A stretch of 64,000 bases of DNA from an uncultured Endomicrobiia bacterium (GCA_937928765.1 CALFVX010000003.1:128081-192080), one strand, 5' to 3'. Counted from the stretch's first letter, positions 4,774-53,375 are shown. Translations and numbers: made by a program. The notes: generated from the letters alone by a model not told the origin.

Positions 4774-5029
4774 ACGAAATGAGATTAAATTTGTATTTAT
4801 ATCTTTTTATATTACTTTAATTTTTCTTACGGCTTTATTAAAATAAATAGTTTTTAAACATTAACAATTCGTATTATTGTTTAAAAAATTTGTTAATAAA
4901 AATATTTGTGTTTCTATTTTAGATTTGAAATAATAAACTAAACCTTAAGTAGAATCTTAAACTATGAAAAAAATTTATATAATAAATATGATAATTTTTT
5001 CATTGTTTATTTTTTAATTACTTTCAGAT

Positions 5030-5314
5030 TTGGTGTTTATAATTTCATACGCAAAAGAATTTTTTGGTGTAAATTTGGGTGGTAATATAAAGTATATTTC
5101 AAGCAAATTATTAAATACAGCAACTGCGATATGTATAGATTTAGGTATTATAAAGAATTATATAGATAACAAACTTTCATTAGGTATAATCGTTTACAAT
5201 TTAGGTACAAAAATAAAATATTATGCTGAAGAAGAAAATTTACCTACGGGTATAAAATTAGGTTTTGGATATAAAAATTTTATTTTTGACTATAGATTTG
5301 TTTCTTATGGTTAA
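5030..5314 (+). CDS. hypothetical protein, possibly a C-terminal fragment of a beta-barrel outer-membrane protein
   Basis: 94 aa ending in an aromatic terminus (FDYRFVSYG). It is in frame with an upstream 17-codon signal-peptide-like mini-ORF (4964-5017) and separated from it by a TAA. Confidence 0.3.
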   Translation: MVFIISYAKEFFGVNLGGNIKYISSKLLNTATAICIDLGIIKNYIDNKLSLGIIVYNLGTKIKYYAEEENLPTGIKLGFGYKNFIFDYRFVSYG

Positions 5315-45177: not shown

Positions 45178-45411
45178 ATGACTACAGCATTAGTATTAGT
45201 AAAGATTTCATCAGGACAAGAGAAACAAGTATTAGAAAAGCTTAAGCTAATAGAAGGTGTAACACATATAACAGCTGTATTTGGCAGATGGGATTTAGTT
45301 TTAGATATTGAAGCAAAAGATTTAGCAGAATTAAGTTGGCTTGTAATATCTAAAATAAGAAAAATTAAAGGTATAGAAAATACTGAAACATTAATCACAA
45401 CCTCTATTTAA
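45178..45411 (+). CDS. stand-alone Lrp/AsnC-type ligand-binding (RAM) domain protein
   Basis: 77 aa. ALVLVKISSGQEKQVLEKLKLIEGVTHITAVFGRWDLVLDIEAKDLAEL...KIRKIKGIENTETLI fits the RAM fold. No HTH. RBS GGGGGTG. Confidence 0.65.
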   Translation: MTTALVLVKISSGQEKQVLEKLKLIEGVTHITAVFGRWDLVLDIEAKDLAELSWLVISKIRKIKGIENTETLITTSI

Positions 45412-45494: not shown

Positions 45495-48400
45495 ATGTCA
45501 AAATTTTATCTGAAGATTAGTTTAGTATTTTTTATTATATTTTTTTTGGTAGTTTTATTATTTTCAGACCCACCAGATCCTATAACCGACCTTAAAGTTA
45601 TTCAAAGTGGTTTTAAATATGTAAATCTTCAATGGACAGTACCAAATTCTACACAACCAATACAGTATTATGAAATAAAATTTGCTACATATCAAATTAC
45701 TGAATCAAATTGGAATGATGTTGGAAATAAACTAGAAATTTTTTCTACACAGCCACCTCCTCTTAAAGGAGATACTACTTCATATATAGTTTATAATTTA
45801 GAAAATTCAAGGTTATATTTTTTTGCAATAAAATCTTCAACTTCAGCTGATAAAAATCCTCTTTCTGAAATAAGTATAAATACTAACGAGTCTTTTGGTT
45901 TCCCATATAACACATCACCTAGCCAATTTAGTTTATCTACACCAACATATGCTGTTGTTATTTCTTCAGAATTTGTAGAACTTGATTGGAACGATGCATA
46001 TGATCCAGATTTAGAATATGGAGATTATTTAGTATATGAAGTTGGACTATCAACTTTTTCCTTAAATTTGTTTTCTTCAACACCATCTTTTAATGGGGCT
46101 GTTGTTATATATAGCATTACCACTAGTTATTATCTTTTAAATGCTAAAGAAAAGCTCATGGATAATACAACATATTATTGGCGTGTAAAAACAATAGATT
46201 CTGAAGGAAAAACAAGTTGGTCTTTAGCAAATATTGAAGAAAGTAGATTTGTAATAGATCATACTCCACAAGCTCCAATAAGTTTTTCTCTACAGATGCC
46301 TATAAACAAATCAACAGTTACTACAACATCAGGAATATTTTTTGATTGGGAAGATTCTTACGATTTTGACCCACAAGATACTTTAAAATATCGTGTTTAT
46401 ATTTCCTCTATTTCAGAAACACAAGGATTTACTAATATAGTTTCAAATTTAAGTTTCTCTTCTTATACTTTAAATTCTTATTCATTCGTTGAAAATACAA
46501 CATATTGGTGGTATGTTATGGCTGAAGATAAATCTGAAAATCTAACAAAATCAAGTCAAACTTTTTATTTTATAGTTAATGACATAAAAGATCCGCCAAT
46601 ACAAAATTTATTGATCTCTCCAGGAACTACTATATATCAAACGATAGAACTTGTGTTTACTCTAAATCCGACATTCTATTGGACAGAATCATATGATTAT
46701 GACCCTTATAGTAAAATTTATTATCAATTATATATTTCTTCCTTTTCAGACAACCCTGATGTTCTAAATTCTATACACACATCACAGGCAATATACAATA
46801 CTTATTATTTTTTGACAGATAATTTACAGGATGAGACTACATATTTTTGGAGATTACGAATATGGGATGAAGTATATCAAGAAAGCGTGTTTTCATCCAC
46901 AGTAGCATGGTTTTATACTTGTGTATATTTAAATTCAGCAGAACTTAAATCTCCACCAGAGAACTCTACAACATCATATTTTTATCCAAATTTTGAATGG
47001 GAAACAAAAATTTCAGGATATAAACTTAACCTTTCTTCACAAACATTAATTTATTGGACTGATAATTCTACAAAAACAGTTTCAGGCCTATCTTCTTATA
47101 CAACTTTTTATATTGTCCAAGAAAAATTACAAAATAACGCAACATATTTTTGGCAAGTTATAACTTATAGTAATTCTCAAGAGATTCCTTTAGTTTCAAC
47201 TTCATCTTATGTTTTTAAATTTTTCTTACATAATTCATCACCTACAGAATTTGATCTTTCCACACCGTCATCAACAATAATAGTTTCTACTTATGTAACA
47301 CTTATATGGAATGCTTCTACTGAACCAGATAATGAAGAGATAACTTATAGTATTTTTTATTCAACTGATAATTTCTTAACTTATTTTTCTTCTGTAGGAA
47401 TAAAAACAACAAGTTTTGTTTTAGAAAACCTGCAAGATAACACAACATATTTTTGGTATGTTTCAGCGGTTGATGTTTGGCAACAAAAAACTTTTTCTAA
47501 CTCTACTTTTTATTTTGTTGTAAACCATACTCAACAAGATCCTACAGCATTTAATCTTTTGTTTCCATCTAATAACCAAATATTAATAAACACATATACA
47601 ACATTTTATTGGCAAGAATCTTATGATATGGACCCTTTTGAAAGTGTGATTTATGAACTTAAAATTTCTACTGATATAAATTTTTATTCTTTAATATTTT
47701 CAACACAAACAACTCAAACACAATTTTTTTTACCTAAAGGATATCTTTTAGTAAATTCAACCTATTATTGGATAGTTGTAGCATCTTCTTCACAAAGCGG
47801 ATTTACTATTTGTAATTCTACATTTAATTTTAAAGTAATAAACACACCACCTTTGAAATTAAACTTAATTTCACCAAAAAATTATGAAATTTTAAAATCC
47901 TCACCGATACAGATAATATGGAGTCCTGCAGAAGATCCACAAGAAGATGAGTTTCACTATGAACTATATTACACAACTTCTGTAGAAAATAATATCTGGC
48001 TTTCAACTATTACAGTGATTTTGCCATCCACAGAATATTCATATACAATATTAGACCCTATAGATGATACAACTTATTACTTTTATATTGTTGCAGTAGA
48101 TATTTATAATAATAAAAACTCAATAGGACCATATACTTTTTGGACATCATTTTTAAACCAACCACCAACAAAACCAAACATTTTATCTCCACAACAGTCT
48201 GAAATTGTTTATCTTCCTTATATAATAAAATGGATGGCTTCTTCTGACTTTGACCTTTTTGACGAAGTGAAATATAAAATACAAATTTCTACTGATGAAA
48301 ATTTTAGTTTTTTTACTACAGTTGTTAGTTCTATTCAAGAAACAGAGTTTAAAATTTCAAATTTTTTTCTTGAGCCCAATACTTATTATTTAAAAATAAT

Positions 48401-49646
48401 TGCTTTTGATAATAATAACGAAATATCTTTCTCAAGCACTTCTTTTGTAATAAACAGATATTATATTTCTATTTATTCACCACAAAATGGTGAAATTATA
48501 AAAAATTTACCCTTAGAATTTTATTTTTCTAAAGTTTCAGCAAAATACTATTCTGATAAAGTAGATTATAAGATATTTTATTCCTCATTTTCAAACTTCA
48601 GTTATAAAACAGAAAAATATTTACAAAATAATTATTATTCTATAAACCAACCACCATTATATCCTAATACCTACTATTTTTATGTTGAAGTTTACTATAA
48701 CAACTTTTATGCAGGAGAAAGTTCTATATTTAGTTTTATAATTCCTAATACTCCTCCAGCAGCACCACAAAATGTTTATTTATCAACTTCAAATTACGCA
48801 GTAGAACTTCTGTGGGATAGTGTAAGTGTTGAAAACTTATGGGGATATAAAGTTTATAGTGGATATGATATTTATAACTTAACTCAGGTAGGATTTACTA
48901 CTAATACTTATTATATAGATTATGATGGGTTTAATAAAAATTTATTTTATATGATATCTTGTGTTAACAATTTTGCTGTAGAAAGTATAAATAATATGTA
49001 TGTGAGATTATATTTACAGCAACAATCAGATATTTATATAAGCCAGGATAAGATTTTAATCTTTTCAGTTCCTAAAAAAGAAAATCTTACTAGTTTAAAA
49101 ATTGAAAGATTAAAAGAAGAAGAAAATGAAAATTATATTTATGTTTATCTCATTAAAGCAAATAAAGCAAAGCTTGATAATTTTTCAGAGATATCAGTTT
49201 TAAAACCTCAAAATATAAAAAATTATGTTATACAATACTATGATGGACATAATTGGATAAATTTTCCGTCAGAAGAGGTTTATGGAAGAGTTATAATAAA
49301 AACACAATATTTAGGCAAATATAGATTAGTTTCGGCTATAGAAGAGATATCTCATGGTCTTACAATAATAGGATGTTCGCCAAAGAAACGTATCATAACG
49401 CCCAATAATGATTCAATAAATGATTATATAGAATTTCATTATAAAGTTGGCAGTTTCATAGATGGCAATATTTATAATATATATGCTAGAAAAGTATGTG
49501 CATTAAAAAGAAAAGACAATAATATTTTATATTTTGATGGTAAAGATGACAATAATAAATACTTACCAGCAGGGATTTATATTTATGTTATAGATTCAAA
49601 ATCAGATGGAAAAAATTTTAAAGGGACAATAGTGATAAAATACTAA
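45495..49646 (+). CDS. large secreted cell-surface protein with about nine FN3-like repeats and a type-B T9SS (CHU_C/gliding-motility) C-terminal sorting domain
   Basis: Signal peptide. Repeated motifs W-x-x-S-Y-D-x-D-P and N-T-T-Y-[YF]-W-x-V recur about every 130 aa. C-terminus IITPNNDSINDYIEF...YFDGKDDNNKYLPAGIYIYVIDSKSDGKNFKGTIVIKY matches the TIGR04131/CHU_C pattern. Confidence 0.75.
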   Translation: MSKFYLKISLVFFIIFFLVVLLFSDPPDPITDLKVIQSGFKYVNLQWTVPNSTQPIQYYEIKFATYQITESNWNDVGNKLEIFSTQPPPLKGDTTSYIVYNLENSRLYFFAIKSSTSADKNPLSEISINTNESFGFPYNTSPSQFSLSTPTYAVVISSEFVELDWNDAYDPDLEYGDYLVYEVGLSTFSLNLFSSTPSFNGAVVIYSITTSYYLLNAKEKLMDNTTYYWRVKTIDSEGKTSWSLANIEESRFVIDHTPQAPISFSLQMPINKSTVTTTSGIFFDWEDSYDFDPQDTLKYRVYISSISETQGFTNIVSNLSFSSYTLNSYSFVENTTYWWYVMAEDKSENLTKSSQTFYFIVNDIKDPPIQNLLISPGTTIYQTIELVFTLNPTFYWTESYDYDPYSKIYYQLYISSFSDNPDVLNSIHTSQAIYNTYYFLTDNLQDETTYFWRLRIWDEVYQESVFSSTVAWFYTCVYLNSAELKSPPENSTTSYFYPNFEWETKISGYKLNLSSQTLIYWTDNSTKTVSGLSSYTTFYIVQEKLQNNATYFWQVITYSNSQEIPLVSTSSYVFKFFLHNSSPTEFDLSTPSSTIIVSTYVTLIWNASTEPDNEEITYSIFYSTDNFLTYFSSVGIKTTSFVLENLQDNTTYFWYVSAVDVWQQKTFSNSTFYFVVNHTQQDPTAFNLLFPSNNQILINTYTTFYWQESYDMDPFESVIYELKISTDINFYSLIFSTQTTQTQFFLPKGYLLVNSTYYWIVVASSSQSGFTICNSTFNFKVINTPPLKLNLISPKNYEILKSSPIQIIWSPAEDPQEDEFHYELYYTTSVENNIWLSTITVILPSTEYSYTILDPIDDTTYYFYIVAVDIYNNKNSIGPYTFWTSFLNQPPTKPNILSPQQSEIVYLPYIIKWMASSDFDLFDEVKYKIQISTDENFSFFTTVVSSIQETEFKISNFFLEPNTYYLKIIAFDNNNEISFSSTSFVINRYYISIYSPQNGEIIKNLPLEFYFSKVSAKYYSDKVDYKIFYSSFSNFSYKTEKYLQNNYYSINQPPLYPNTYYFYVEVYYNNFYAGESSIFSFIIPNTPPAAPQNVYLSTSNYAVELLWDSVSVENLWGYKVYSGYDIYNLTQVGFTTNTYYIDYDGFNKNLFYMISCVNNFAVESINNMYVRLYLQQQSDIYISQDKILIFSVPKKENLTSLKIERLKEEENENYIYVYLIKANKAKLDNFSEISVLKPQNIKNYVIQYYDGHNWINFPSEEVYGRVIIKTQYLGKYRLVSAIEEISHGLTIIGCSPKKRIITPNNDSINDYIEFHYKVGSFIDGNIYNIYARKVCALKRKDNNILYFDGKDDNNKYLPAGIYIYVIDSKSDGKNFKGTIVIKY

Positions 49647-51040
49647 TGATTAAAAAAATTTTTATAATATTTTGTGTTATAATTTTAAAAACAAGCATAA
49701 TTTTTGGGATTTATGTTTCAGAATATTCGTTTGTAGGTTATCCTCAGGAAAGTAGTGTTGTTTTTTTAAATCCAGCGACAGCAGGAAACTTAGTCAATAT
49801 TAATTTAGATATGAGTTATGGTATGATTTTTAAAGGTTTAATTGAAGAAAATTTGTACAATACAGAGTTTTCTTTAAGCTATAATATAAAAAATAATTTT
49901 TTTGGTAGCTTAGGATTTAGAGAACTTGTCTTGCAAGATATTTTTTCTGAAAATTTGTTGCTAGGAAGTTTTGGGATTAAATTACTTAATGAAAAAATTT
50001 TTGTTGCTTTTAGTTTTAAATATTATATTTTTAAATATTTTTATGATGAATATTATTTAGAAGATGTTTTAGCGGAAAATAATTTAGTAGTTAATAATAT
50101 AGATTTTGGATTTTTATGGAAAATTAAAGAAGATATTTTTTTCTCTTTCGGTGTGCTGAACTTAATTAATAATTCTTTAGGTAAAGATATAAAATATTCT
50201 CTACCGCAAAACTATGTTTTAGGTTTAGGATATAGATATTATACAACAATATTTAATTTTGAATATCATATTGTAAAAAATATTATAGATCAAAAAATTT
50301 TAAATGATAATAATTTAAAAATATGTCTAAAACAAGAAATGTTTTATACAAACAAGATATCGATGTATTTAGTTTTTGAAGTAAACAAACAACAAAATTT
50401 TGACAGTTTTGTTTTAGCTGCAGAATTAAGATTTTTACAAAATAATTTAGGATTAAGATACTTTTGTGTATATCCTTTAAGTCTTGTTTCACAAAAAGAG
50501 TTTTTTGGTAATCATTATATAAATTTTAATATAAGTTTAGCTAAAAAATCTATAAGAGAACATAGATTAGAAAAAGAAAAAGTTAATATTTTAGAAAAGC
50601 CAATAGTTAAAAAAGATGAAGAAATTGTTGTTGTAGAACCCAAAAAGGAAGTTTATTTTGATAGTGAACTACAAAAAATAGAAGTGTCTGTTGATAATAA
50701 GACAGAAATTTTTGAAGAAAAACAAAAAAAAGAAGAAGTTAAAAAGAAAGATTTAGAATTAGAAGAAAATATACAGGTTATTAAACCAGAGGTTAAAATT
50801 GCAACAAAAACAGTACATATAGAAGTTATTAAAAAAGAGCAACAACTATACAAACAACAAAAAGAAAGATATAAGTTTCCTTTAGCTCATAAAGTTTCAA
50901 AGGGTGAAACCTTGATTTCTATATCAAAAAAGTATTATAATAATGAAAAAGGGTGGAAAAAAATTTACGAAACAAATAAAGAGAAAATTATCAAAGGGGT
51001 TCCTATAGTTGGAGAAATATTGATTATACCAGAACCATAG
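49646..51040 (+). CDS. PorP/SprF-like membrane protein fused to a C-terminal LysM peptidoglycan-binding domain
   Basis: N-terminal signal/TM then FLNPATAGN (PorP/SprF NPAxAG motif) and a beta-strand-rich segment of about 300 aa, a K/E-rich linker, and the C-terminal LysM (HKVSKGETLISISKKYYNNEKGWKKIYETNKEKI...GEILIIP). The start overlaps the preceding stop (TAATG). Confidence 0.55.
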   Translation: MIKKIFIIFCVIILKTSIIFGIYVSEYSFVGYPQESSVVFLNPATAGNLVNINLDMSYGMIFKGLIEENLYNTEFSLSYNIKNNFFGSLGFRELVLQDIFSENLLLGSFGIKLLNEKIFVAFSFKYYIFKYFYDEYYLEDVLAENNLVVNNIDFGFLWKIKEDIFFSFGVLNLINNSLGKDIKYSLPQNYVLGLGYRYYTTIFNFEYHIVKNIIDQKILNDNNLKICLKQEMFYTNKISMYLVFEVNKQQNFDSFVLAAELRFLQNNLGLRYFCVYPLSLVSQKEFFGNHYINFNISLAKKSIREHRLEKEKVNILEKPIVKKDEEIVVVEPKKEVYFDSELQKIEVSVDNKTEIFEEKQKKEEVKKKDLELEENIQVIKPEVKIATKTVHIEVIKKEQQLYKQQKERYKFPLAHKVSKGETLISISKKYYNNEKGWKKIYETNKEKIIKGVPIVGEILIIPEP

Positions 51041-51247: not shown

Positions 51248-52204
51248 ATGTTTGATGATGAAGAAAAATTTTATACTTGGGATGAAATAGAAAAAGAACT
51301 TTCAGAACTTGAACTTCAGTATGGTGATAAGGATGATGTGATGCAAAGTCTTATTACACCGTCTGTATCAGCATACTGGAGAAGAAAACTTGAAGAAGAA
51401 AAAATTCTGTACGAAAAGATATTGCAAACAAAAGAAGAAGAAAAAAAACAAATAATTTTAAAATTACAACAGCAAGAACAGATAATAGAAGAACTAAAAA
51501 AACAGATTGAAAAAATAGAGCGTGGCGAATATGAAAAACTTAAGGATAAGTTTGAAGAATTGCGCAGCAAAGAGTTAGAACTTGAAAAAGAGAAAGAAAA
51601 ATTGGTTTGGCAACAACAGATACAAGGACTAGAATATGATAAAAAGATTATTGAAAAAGAAGTTGAACGTGCAAAACAAGAATTTGAACAACAAAAACAA
51701 GAACTTCTTGTATATTATAATAGACAATTTAATTCTTTACTTGAAGTACAAAATCAACTTTTAGAAGAGACAAGTAGGCTTGAACAAGAATTAGACAAAG
51801 TTCTTTTTACAGCAAAAAAAGAAGTTGAAAAATTTGGTTCAGAAAAAGATTTGATATTAAAAGAATTAGAAGATTTAAAAGTTGTAGTTGATAATTTAAA
51901 AAGAGAGAAAGAAATTTTGATAAATGAAAAAAATTTGTTGTTAAGAAATATTGAAGATATTAAAAAACAGAATATTGTAGATAAGAAAAAGATTGTATCA
52001 GATATTTCTTATAACATAAAGAATTATATTAACGAAATTAGAAGTTTATGTGGTTTAATTATTGGGGCAATAAATTTTGTGTCTAGACATCATAAATATA
52101 AAAATTCAGTAAAATTTCATTATGAACTAATACTTAATTCTATCCAACGAATATTAAGTATTCTAGATGAGATTGCAAAGTTTGTTGTAGAATACCAGGT
52201 TTAA
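51248..52204 (+). CDS. coiled-coil protein with a possible DHp-like C-terminal helix pair
   Basis: 318 aa. E/K/Q-rich heptad repeats throughout. The C-terminal NEIRSLCGLIIGAINFVSRHHKYKNSVKFHYELILNSIQRIL is weakly HisKA-like; no ATPase domain. Confidence 0.45.
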   Translation: MFDDEEKFYTWDEIEKELSELELQYGDKDDVMQSLITPSVSAYWRRKLEEEKILYEKILQTKEEEKKQIILKLQQQEQIIEELKKQIEKIERGEYEKLKDKFEELRSKELELEKEKEKLVWQQQIQGLEYDKKIIEKEVERAKQEFEQQKQELLVYYNRQFNSLLEVQNQLLEETSRLEQELDKVLFTAKKEVEKFGSEKDLILKELEDLKVVVDNLKREKEILINEKNLLLRNIEDIKKQNIVDKKKIVSDISYNIKNYINEIRSLCGLIIGAINFVSRHHKYKNSVKFHYELILNSIQRILSILDEIAKFVVEYQV

Positions 52205-52208
52205 TTTT

Positions 52209-53375
52209 ATGCAGAAAATATTGATAATCAGTTTCAAAGAAGAACCACAATCTTTCCTGCCACAAAAATTTATCTCAGAATTTCAAATAAAAATTGTCCA
52301 TGAAAATTATTCTTTTAAACAGTTGATTGAAGAAATTATAAAATTTAAACCGCAGTTGATAATTGTAAATGAATTTATTCCTATAAAATCTTTAGAAAAA
52401 ATTTGTAAAATATATAATTTTATACCTATATGTTGTATAGGGAAAATTGAGGAAGAAAATAAGTTAGAAAAATTTTTAGAATTAGGTATTACTTTGATTA
52501 AGATTCCAAAAAGTGAAGATGAAATTGTTTCAACAATAAAAAATGTTTTATGGTTTTCTTTAGCTAAAGAAGAATTGTGGTCTAAAGAGTACGAATTGGC
52601 AAGATATGAAAAAAAGAAAGATAAAATTTTTTCAATTTTAAAATATTCTTCTATTTTTTTTGTTTTAATTTTTTTATTTTTTATATCATCAAAAGTATAT
52701 AATTATGTTTTAAAACCTAAAGAATTGTTTAATCTTGTAGAATTCAAATATATTAAACCATCAGATATAACTATTGTTGGAGATAAGTATATAATAAATG
52801 ATTGGACAGTAAGAAATTTTTTTGAATATTTACAAAACAATGACAATATGGTAGGAATGTTAATTGCAGAAAAACAATTTAATAATATTGCTTTTGATAG
52901 CAGAAATCAAGTTCTGTTTGCTTCCTCTGCTTTTGATGATAAAGTTTATCTTTATAAATATCCAGATTTAAGTATTATAGTTTCTTCTTTTACAATAAGT
53001 AATGGTGTAATTTTGTCATTATATGTAGATAATGATATGAATTTATATATTTTAAATAACGAAAAAATTTTATTTGAATTCAAAATTAATGATTTAAACA
53101 AATTAGTTTTTATCTCTTCTTTTACTATACCAAATTTTTTTCCTATAGATATAAATATTTTTGAAGACAAATTTTATTTTCTTGATAACAATAACAATAT
53201 CTGGGTGATGAAAAAAAATGATAATGAGTTTGAAATAGAGAAAGTTATTGTTTTATCATTATATTTCGCAGGTGAAGTTCAACAGTTCAATTCGTTTGCA
53301 ATAGGAGAAAAATTTTTTTATTTGTTAAGTGAAAAAGAAAATAAATTATACAAATTACCAAAAGAAATCTTATAA
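52209..53375 (+). CDS. membrane protein with an N-terminal pseudo-receiver (CheY-like fold, Asp replaced), one TM helix and a C-terminal beta-propeller-like repeat region
   Basis: KILIISFKEE...PQLIIVNEF...IPICCIGK...LGITLIKIPKSEDEIV parallels the CheY beta-alpha pattern with N in place of the phospho-Asp. TM at ILKYSSIFFVLIFLFFISS. Four repeats follow of the type hydrophobic-D-x-x-x-x-hydrophobic-Y-hydrophobic-L. Confidence 0.4.
   Translation: MQKILIISFKEEPQSFLPQKFISEFQIKIVHENYSFKQLIEEIIKFKPQLIIVNEFIPIKSLEKICKIYNFIPICCIGKIEEENKLEKFLELGITLIKIPKSEDEIVSTIKNVLWFSLAKEELWSKEYELARYEKKKDKIFSILKYSSIFFVLIFLFFISSKVYNYVLKPKELFNLVEFKYIKPSDITIVGDKYIINDWTVRNFFEYLQNNDNMVGMLIAEKQFNNIAFDSRNQVLFASSAFDDKVYLYKYPDLSIIVSSFTISNGVILSLYVDNDMNLYILNNEKILFEFKINDLNKLVFISSFTIPNFFPIDINIFEDKFYFLDNNNNIWVMKKNDNEFEIEKVIVLSLYFAGEVQQFNSFAIGEKFFYLLSEKENKLYKLPKEIL

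Follow-up and report, generated by a model that had tools for sequence, protein, structure and literature searches.

Background

What function might a LysM domain serve at the end of an outer-membrane β-barrel? This question is raised by an open reading frame (ORF) at positions 49646-51040, on the + strand, of a 64,000-nucleotide stretch of DNA from an uncultured Endomicrobiia bacterium (GCA_937928765.1 CALFVX010000003.1:128081-192080), hereafter referred to as the window. The window is very AT-rich (GC approximately 25%), and the ORF, as read from its sequence, encodes a protein of 464 amino acids (aa). The original prediction, made from the DNA alone, described the product as a PorP/SprF-like barrel joined through a charged linker to a LysM domain, and proposed that such a fusion would tether a PorP-like shuttle and its cargo to the cell wall.

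Here we describe the domain anatomy of this barrel protein, its superfamily relationship, the C-terminal domain (CTD) of the giant protein encoded directly upstream, and the conserved, co-diverging pairing of the two genes. By linking these observations, we arrive at a reading that we hold with somewhat more confidence than doubt: the barrel protein is the cognate carrier and anchor of the upstream giant, and staples the cargo complex to peptidoglycan.

Results and discussion

Domain anatomy of the barrel protein

An AlphaFold2 model of the protein, built on a 15-sequence alignment, begins with a signal helix and short helices in residues 24-48, continues with 14 β-strands within residues 52-298, for which the predicted local distance difference test (pLDDT) score is mostly 80-94, and then runs unstructured from residue 305 to approximately residue 410 (pLDDT 24-40). 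The following parts were delimited:

49646-49714, + strand: signal peptide, aa 1-23 (hydrophobic N-terminus MIKKIFIIFCVIILKTSIIFG; low-pLDDT helix in the AlphaFold2 model)
49715-50554, + strand: N-terminal hatch with NPA motif and 14-stranded outer-membrane β-barrel, aa 24-303 (AlphaFold2, Foldseek, profiles)
50555-50869, + strand: disordered K/E-rich periplasmic linker, aa 304-408 (pLDDT 24-40, composition)
50870-51040, + strand: Kbp/YgaU-type LysM domain, aa 409-464, and stop codon (Pfam LysM, PRK11198, PDB Kbp)

When the barrel model was compared with PDB structures using Foldseek, 14-stranded outer-membrane barrels were retrieved, with OmpG at a template modelling score (TMt) of 0.58-0.69, together with FadL, TodX, CymD, and PorV (6h3i_F, TMt 0.51) of the T9SS (type IX secretion system). 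The hatch carries the motif N42-P43-A44, in which P43 is invariant among orthologues, and NPA is present in every type of the gene cassette described below. A 14-stranded barrel and a hatch with NPA, the defining features of the FadL/OMPP1/TodX family (PF03349), are thus both found, and hatch and fold put the barrel protein in the FadL superfamily. The barrel anticipated for the N-terminal region is therefore present in the model, and the secretory signal peptide in front of it speaks against a cytoplasmic location of this region.

The 15 close homologues identified are all full-length and 35-77% identical to the window protein, those with a name come from Endomicrobiia or other Elusimicrobiota metagenome-assembled genomes (MAGs), and every one of them (15/15) keeps the barrel-LysM fusion. 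Conservation among these orthologues is very uneven, with the LysM domain being near-invariant (89% mean pairwise identity) versus 41% for the barrel. The linker varies in length from 77 to 126 aa at a mean pairwise identity of 25%. In the window protein it is K/E-rich as predicted (K+E 42%, charged residues 49%), but at approximately 105 aa it is longer than the roughly 70 aa originally assigned to it.

The upstream giant and its C-terminal domain

The barrel gene starts where another, much larger gene ends, the stop codon of the latter and the start codon of the former overlapping (TAATG). The larger gene and its parts are as follows:

45495-49646, + strand: giant of 1383 aa with fn3/Ig_Rha78A_N-type repeats (Pfam fn3, Ig_Rha78A_N, CHU_C)
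45495-45566, + strand: Sec signal peptide of the giant, aa 1-24 (hydrophobic N-terminus MSKFYLKISLVFFIIFFLVVLLFS, by inspection)
49392-49637, + strand: CHU_C/type-B-like CTD of the giant, aa 1300-1381 (Pfam CHU_C)

The full-length giant scores 31.1 bits against Pfam CHU_C (PF13585; cutoff 27), and its isolated CTD, located at the extreme C-terminus, reaches 38.1 bits (E 1.7e-9) in a match that spans profile positions 5-86 of 86. The best NCBIfam match of the CTD is TIGR04131, the type-B sorting domain, at 28.2 bits, which is below the cutoff of 35; TIGR04131 is also the best NCBIfam match for most other giants, one paralogue of which passes at 35.3 bits. The CHU_C cutoff was passed by seven of the ten giants tested, and the CTDs of all 18 giants (18/18) have the motif (I/F)TPNNDG.ND...DG...G..P.GVYIY...F.GT(I/V)V in common. 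A word-index homology search with the isolated CTD returned two matches. The idea that the giant is an inner-membrane-anchored protein spanning the periplasm was considered and rejected, given that it appears to begin with a signal peptide of the cleavable kind leading into fn3; by inspection, the hydrophobic stretch runs straight into the first fn3 repeat, an arrangement that is conserved across giants.

The same gene order recurs well beyond the window. Among the barrel genes examined in Elusimicrobia loci, 17 of 18 directly follow a CTD giant (ORFs of 1077-1958 aa), usually with overlapping stop and start codons, and in the remaining case (L069) a 143-aa CHU_C protein precedes the barrel. 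Because the CTD giant is translationally coupled upstream of the barrel, the arrangement mirrors the gene logic of SprB-SprF, and the giant is presumed to be the cognate cargo of the barrel protein. The overlapping CTD giant and its recurrence lend support to the earlier idea of a PorP-like shuttle.

A conserved and duplicated cassette

A scan of reference genomes with the alignment of orthologues gave 80 loci, most of which are small LysM-only proteins of other phyla that are irrelevant to the barrel; full barrel+LysM matches were restricted to Elusimicrobia. Orthologues and barrel paralogues of approximately 25% identity coexist in the same Elusimicrobia genomes, and in one locus (L014) two cassettes stand in tandem. 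Both in the window type of cassette and in the Endomicrobiia paralogues, the barrel gene is followed by ORFs of approximately 320-390 aa and approximately 380 aa, so that four genes recur together.

Identities were compared, within a cassette type and between the two types of one genome, for three segments:

CTD: approximately 64% within a cassette type, 38% between the two types
Barrel: approximately 40% within a cassette type, 17% between the two types
LysM: 84-90% within a cassette type, 51% between the two types

Cassettes that are more alike in their CTDs also tend to be more alike in their barrels (Spearman 0.71 for the two identities), and the cassettes duplicate and co-diverge as units. 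The orthologous cassette is always located between pheST and glyA, in surroundings of conserved housekeeping genes, an MraY-like glycosyltransferase gene and a LytR-family gene. This conserved position beside pheST and glyA suggests that the cassette encodes a core envelope structure of a little-studied phylum.

The third and fourth genes of the window cassette comprise the following:

51248-52204, + strand: gene 3, cytoplasmic coiled-coil protein of 318 aa (weak coiled-coil-type matches)
52209-53375, + strand: gene 4, protein of 388 aa with a receiver-like α/β domain (aa 1-118), a transmembrane helix (aa 140-161) and a β-propeller (aa 175-388) (AlphaFold2, Foldseek)
52626-52691, + strand: transmembrane helix of gene 4, aa 140-161 (AlphaFold2 model)

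Gene 3, which is kept in all orthologous cassettes, encodes neither a signal peptide nor a transmembrane segment (maximum 19-residue Kyte-Doolittle hydropathy 1.26). It is tied through a common homologue (L014), rather than by directly shown homology, to a protein of the paralogous cassettes that combines a coiled coil with a HATPase_c domain (E 2.9e-16). The AlphaFold2 model of the gene 4 product (mean pLDDT 84) contains a periplasmic six-bladed β-propeller, for which Foldseek retrieved NHL, Pizza6 and WD40 propellers (TMt up to 0.64), and a cytoplasmic, receiver-like N-terminal domain, the profile of which weakly matches PhoB/CheY (E 0.012). In paralogous cassettes, a TPR region takes the place of the receiver-like domain.

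The second, paralogous cassette was seen in six Endomicrobiia MAG loci (L010, L011, L012, L016, L022, L024), in one of which (L024) both cassette types adjoin. It starts with a low-molecular-weight phosphotyrosine phosphatase, a giant of 1916-1958 aa and a barrel-LysM protein, and ends with the coiled-coil + HATPase_c protein, a TPR-transmembrane-propeller protein, and a protein combining TPR with a SpoIID/LytB peptidoglycan-remodelling domain.

Placement of the barrel

Direct Pfam and NCBIfam scans of the window protein gave a weak LysM match alone. A barrel-only profile (A2) was therefore searched against 1.84 billion representative proteins, from which 356 were retrieved at E<=1e-3, 71 of them at E<=1e-10. 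The best 94 relatives of the 356 were scanned one by one with NCBIfam and Pfam, and matches at E<0.01 were distributed as follows:

NCBIfam PorV/PorQ family NF033709: 87 of 94 relatives, best E 1.9e-28
NCBIfam PorV2: 78 of 94, best E 1.9e-17
NCBIfam PorP/SprF TIGR03519: 43 of 94, best E 6.2e-15
NCBIfam PorV: 37 of 94, best E 1.9e-10
NCBIfam PorQ: 36 of 94, best E 6.4e-08
Pfam LysM: 50 of 94, best E 1.1e-11
Pfam TraF_2: 40 of 94, best E 5.5e-10
Pfam PorP_SprF (PF11751): 36 of 94, best E 5.6e-13
Pfam Toluene_X (FadL): 15 of 94, best E 1.3e-05

A second profile (A4), consisting of the window protein and its 93 best relatives (94 proteins), matched the solved Flavobacterium johnsoniae PorV (6h3i_F) in the PDB at E 3.3e-9 and the FadL-family protein TodX, at the N-terminal hatch, at E 2.7e-5. 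The narrower barrel profile found no match among PDB sequences, PorV being reached by the 94-member profile only. It is important to note that the superfamily kinship of the barrel is visible because a family profile was used and not a single sequence.

Named members of the barrel family are all from Elusimicrobiota, and two have already been given the automatic NCBI name 'type IX secretion system membrane protein PorP/SprF'. As judged from these profile matches, the barrel represents a distinct family inside the PorV/PorQ/PorP-FadL superfamily. The PorP/SprF-like label of the original prediction thus holds at the level of the superfamily, through the family profile, but not as a direct model match. 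Curated PorP/SprF membership is not demonstrable, and 'PorV/PorQ/PorP-superfamily carrier barrel' should be the apt sequence-based label.

The LysM domain and its interchangeable counterparts

The LysM domain of the window protein matches PRK11198 at E 1.3e-4 and the LysM domain of Kbp in the PDB at E 1.3e-3 with the single sequence and 2.2e-10 with the A4 profile. With Kbp/YgaU (PDB 7pvc; PRK11198) it shares the signature G(D/E)TL..IS...Y....W.KI(F/Y)EANK....PG..L.IP, and differs from it in forming the C-terminus of a secreted outer-membrane protein, where it would sit in the periplasm. Two orthologues are named 'LysM peptidoglycan-binding domain-containing protein' by NCBI, and orthologue P0011 has a precomputed PF01476 match. 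In the AlphaFold2 model, the order of a strand (421-424), a short helix, a helix (434-447) and a strand (460-462) is compatible with the βααβ fold at a pLDDT below 60. The LysM domain that had been claimed for the C-terminus is supported, its assignment being solid at the family level.

The Kbp-like signature W.KIYEANK...PG..L.IP also ends many small non-barrel proteins (80-390 aa; loci L017-L083) in Planctomycetota, Omnitrophota, Gemmatimonadota, Bacteroidales and others. Since this LysM subtype occurs on non-barrel proteins elsewhere, it represents a widely reused C-terminal module rather than one specific to the barrel family.

A census of architectures across 144 proteins (the barrel protein and 143 remote relatives) shows LysM at the very C-terminus to be the commonest arrangement (69/144); 31 are barrel-only, six end in OmpA_C, and others end in TPR. 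At the locus level, as three loci of other Elusimicrobiota show, the wall-binding module may be fused, exchanged, or encoded separately. In L086, a barrel+OmpA protein comes after an fn3 giant bearing the CTD described above. In L087, a giant is followed by a PorP_SprF-positive barrel+TPR protein and then by two separate OmpA/MotB-like genes, and the second pair of this locus by a separate LysM protein. In L069, the barrel bears both TPR and LysM. Because LysM and OmpA_C, which are unrelated folds, are fused or adjacent at the same position, wall attachment can be argued to be the selected function, the fused, swapped and split-off modules providing natural 'Rosetta-stone' evidence for a link between carrier and wall.

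By the architectures found, the barrel-LysM fusion is widespread in Elusimicrobiota and not unique. In the searchable literature, no description of a PorP/PorV-LysM fusion was found, in keeping with the suggestion that it had not been reported; its breadth in this phylum, and the PorP/SprF names already assigned to some members, qualify the novelty.

Two further observations concern the neighbours of these barrels. In two Elusimicrobiota (L069 3303-4934; L087 6281-7557 and 12786-14165), CTD/barrel cassettes are adjoined by FliG-like proteins with FliG_M and FliG_C domains (E values as low as 3e-23) and by MotB-like OmpA proteins, which hints at a rotor/stator-type cytoplasmic-membrane component tied to CTD/barrel systems. 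L069 further contains a HisKA+HATPase_c kinase, as well as the 143-aa CHU_C-only protein encoded upstream of the barrel-TPR-LysM gene.

Carrier and anchor: proposed mechanism and alternatives

Signal peptides are seen on both the giant and the barrel protein, and both would be exported by Sec. The barrel would insert in the outer membrane, and because its strand number is even, the established topology of such outer-membrane barrels would place both of its termini in the periplasm. We infer a route for the giant across the outer membrane, docking of its type-B-like CTD on the barrel, and exposure of the giant at the cell surface, where it would be retained as SprB is by SprF and PG1035 by PorP. 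The disordered, charged tether of approximately 105 residues would let the LysM domain reach peptidoglycan and bind it, and this would fix the cargo-carrier complex, together with the outer membrane at that site, to the cell wall. The best reading, by analogy, is that a single polypeptide would combine the roles of PorP and PorE.

Several observations weigh against this proposal. None of the PorP_SprF, PorV, PorQ and FadL models of Pfam and NCBIfam match the window protein at E<=1, and none of ten relatives examined individually pass the curated cutoffs, scoring 45-78 bits against the PorV family model (cutoff 90) and 23-45 bits against PorP TIGR03519 (cutoff 90.55). Residues 415-462 of the window protein score 18 bits against Pfam LysM (PF01476), below the gathering cutoff of 20.9, and the domain is modelled at low confidence. 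Its identity is specific to the cassette type, as given above. The PDB lists Kbp, the closest solved relative of the domain, as a potassium-binding protein; in Escherichia coli it is a cytoplasmic BON-LysM protein and, to our knowledge, no proven wall binder. Finally, published accounts restrict T9SS to Bacteroidota (PMC12618676) or to the Fibrobacteres-Chlorobi-Bacteroidetes (FCB) superphylum (PMC12421860, PMC12398890), outside which Elusimicrobiota lies, and an inspection of approximately 450 kb of Elusimicrobia loci, short of a whole-genome scan with core models, revealed no T9SS translocon or motor genes.

The behaviour of the LysM domain raises the alternative that it mainly docks a protein, linking the barrel to the periplasmic propeller of gene 4, the receiver-like domain of which would form, with gene 3, a trans-envelope assembly or signalling device that reports the state of the giant. 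Its conservation (89% versus 41% for the barrel) exceeds the apparent need of generic glycan binding, and the two cassette types of one cell share the same peptidoglycan yet have LysM domains that are only 51% identical, which hints at a protein partner besides or instead of peptidoglycan. Retention of genes 3 and 4 in both cassette types, the inner-membrane location of gene 4 with its periplasmic six-bladed propeller and receiver-like domain, the HATPase_c domain of gene 3 in paralogous cassettes, and the name and cytoplasmic location of Kbp would all fit such a device. Yet an old duplication with subsequent purifying selection can also produce type-specific conservation, and in relatives LysM is replaced by OmpA_C, a bona fide peptidoglycan binder, or accompanied by separate OmpA or LysM genes flanking unfused barrels. 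We regard docking as an unlikely main role.

Wall attachment could also be the whole function, the protein being a general OmpA/Pal-like staple between outer membrane and wall, and its adjacency to the giant a matter of co-expressed envelope genes. OmpA itself combines a barrel with a periplasmic wall-binding domain, the neighbourhood from pheST to glyA, with its MraY-like glycosyltransferase and LytR-family genes, is of a housekeeping kind, and PorE has been reinterpreted as a general tether between outer membrane and peptidoglycan (PMC12204202). Mere co-expression is difficult to reconcile with the finding that a CTD giant precedes 17 of the 18 barrel copies examined, among them paralogues at other genomic sites, with overlapping stop and start codons, or with the co-divergence of CTD and barrel by cassette type; furthermore, the barrel comes from the superfamily of CTD carriers and not from the 8-stranded OmpA family. 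A staple serving no particular cargo is therefore improbable.

An uptake channel of the FadL type, serving hydrophobic compounds and incidentally carrying a wall anchor, as might be suggested by the likeness of the fold to FadL, TodX and CymD, the conserved NPA hatch, the Toluene_X matches of 15 relatives and the TodX match at the hatch, is highly improbable, given that PorV/PorP-like carriers, being 14-stranded FadL-family barrels, have the same features (PMC9143113), that the cassette contains no lipid or aromatic catabolism genes, and that the strict linkage to CTD giants would be left unexplained.

Comparison with known carrier and tether systems

Type-B CTD genes of Bacteroidota as a rule have a porP/sprF-like gene directly downstream, with which they form cognate pairs (PMC12618676). 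At the cell surface, type-B cargo is anchored by PorP-like barrels, and PorP is linked to peptidoglycan by PorE, which consists of TPR, propeller, CRD and OmpA_C; wall anchoring via PorP-PorE has been proposed for type-B cargo that is non-mobile, whereas the mobile SprB-SprF is not anchored in this way (PMC9143113). SprF has a periplasmic C-terminal tail that is disulfide-bonded to GldK, for attachment (PMC12635249). Retention of type-B cargo and the true role of PorE are current questions (PMC9143113, PMC12204202, PMC12773672).

The closest parallel in gene order is SprB-SprF of F. johnsoniae (Fjoh_3952-Fjoh_3951; TIGR03519, PF11751). In both systems, (i) the barrel is of the 14-stranded FadL type, (ii) its gene lies directly downstream of that for a large repetitive protein with a CHU_C/TIGR04131-type CTD, (iii) there is one barrel per cargo, with paralogous pairs within one genome, and (iv) the barrel ends in a periplasmic C-terminal tail that is functional in SprF and would be so here. 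They differ in the nature of this tail, which in SprF is a short Cys-X-Cys sequence bonded to GldK (PMC12635249) and in the window protein a linker of approximately 105 aa with a LysM domain. Unlike SprF and PorP, the window barrel passes no curated cutoff and is at least as close to the PorV/PorQ models, and its host is a member of Elusimicrobiota, outside FCB, where T9SS translocon and motor genes have not been demonstrated.

In function, PorP-PorE offers a precedent, in which a protein bearing a type-B CTD is bound to a PorP barrel that is bridged to peptidoglycan in a static, wall-anchored complex; owing to this two-protein arrangement, wall tethering of a carrier is not unprecedented (PMC9143113). 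In the window protein, barrel and wall-binding module form a single chain, and the module is LysM and not the OmpA_C of PorE. The TPR and β-propeller of PorE have no counterpart in the barrel protein; a propeller is found in gene 4, and TPR in paralogues and relatives. The architecture of PorE (NF052230; a lipoprotein with TPR, β-propeller, CRD and OmpA_C) is seen in neither the barrel protein nor the gene 4 product, and PorE-model matches among relatives arise only through OmpA or TPR parts. The relation to PorE would accordingly be one of functional analogy only.

PorV, the type-A carrier of T9SS, and PorQ, which forms an attachment complex with PorZ (NF033709/NF033710/NF033711), belong to the same barrel superfamily, as seen in the matches of 87 of 94 relatives and of the solved PorV at E 3.3e-9. 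They are barrel-only and serve type-A CTDs, whereas the window protein has a wall anchor and follows a gene with a type-B-like CTD. OmpA-type tethers are likewise single polypeptides in which an outer-membrane barrel is joined via a periplasmic linker to a wall-binding domain; they are 8-stranded and end in OmpA_C, whereas the window protein has a 14-stranded FadL/PorV-type barrel, a LysM domain and a paired CTD cargo gene.

Possible type IX-like display outside the FCB superphylum

The flanks of the window cassette and of related loci contain only housekeeping, pilus ATPase and SpoIID genes, and literature searches returned no paper linking T9SS to Elusimicrobia or Elusimicrobiota. A second kind of CTD-carrier pair was nevertheless found in other members of this phylum (L086 11002-17683; L087 8841-12004), in which proteins end in a YPNP...GLYIY CTD. 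These CTDs are most like the PorZ CTD/type-A sorting domain TIGR04183 (up to 33.9 bits, cutoff 23), and immediately downstream of each of their genes is one for a barrel-only protein, which scores above the PorV/PorQ cutoff (150-156 bits versus 90) and has PorQ as its best specific model. By sequence, these pairs look like PorZ-PorQ outside FCB. Given that type-B-like and PorZ/PorQ-like pairs are both present, CTD-carrier pairs of both kinds are at home in Elusimicrobiota. With modules homologous to SprB-SprF and PorZ-PorQ being common in this phylum, it becomes directly testable how type IX secretion arose and of what it minimally consists.

A broader and more tentative proposal, rather unlikely in our estimation, is that Elusimicrobiota possess a self-contained or ancestral type IX-like surface display, in which CTD giants are given to wall-stapled FadL-type carriers within four-gene trans-envelope cassettes, and which works without SprA/GldKLMN or with an unrecognised equivalent. 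The cassette would then consist of the giant, the barrel-LysM protein, a cytoplasmic coiled-coil/kinase-like protein, and an inner-membrane receiver- or TPR-propeller protein. If this were true, either the CTD-carrier pair is the ancient core of the Bacteroidota T9SS, or T9SS extends far beyond FCB.

Additional observations in the window

A 77-aa gene (45178-45411, + strand) located between pheT and the giant encodes nothing but the ligand-binding domain of the Lrp/AsnC type (E 3.4e-14), lacking the DNA-binding one, and is absent from the otherwise identical synteny of two related loci (L001 and L003). At 4964-5314 (+ strand), there is an apparent remnant of a second PorV/PorQ-like barrel gene, with a signal-peptide-like start MKKIYIINMIIFSLFIF, an in-frame TAA at 5015-5017, and then approximately 94 aa with a match to the central strands of the family's barrel (local hidden Markov model E 1.6e-7). 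Its length does not suffice for a complete barrel, and it probably represents a pseudogene.

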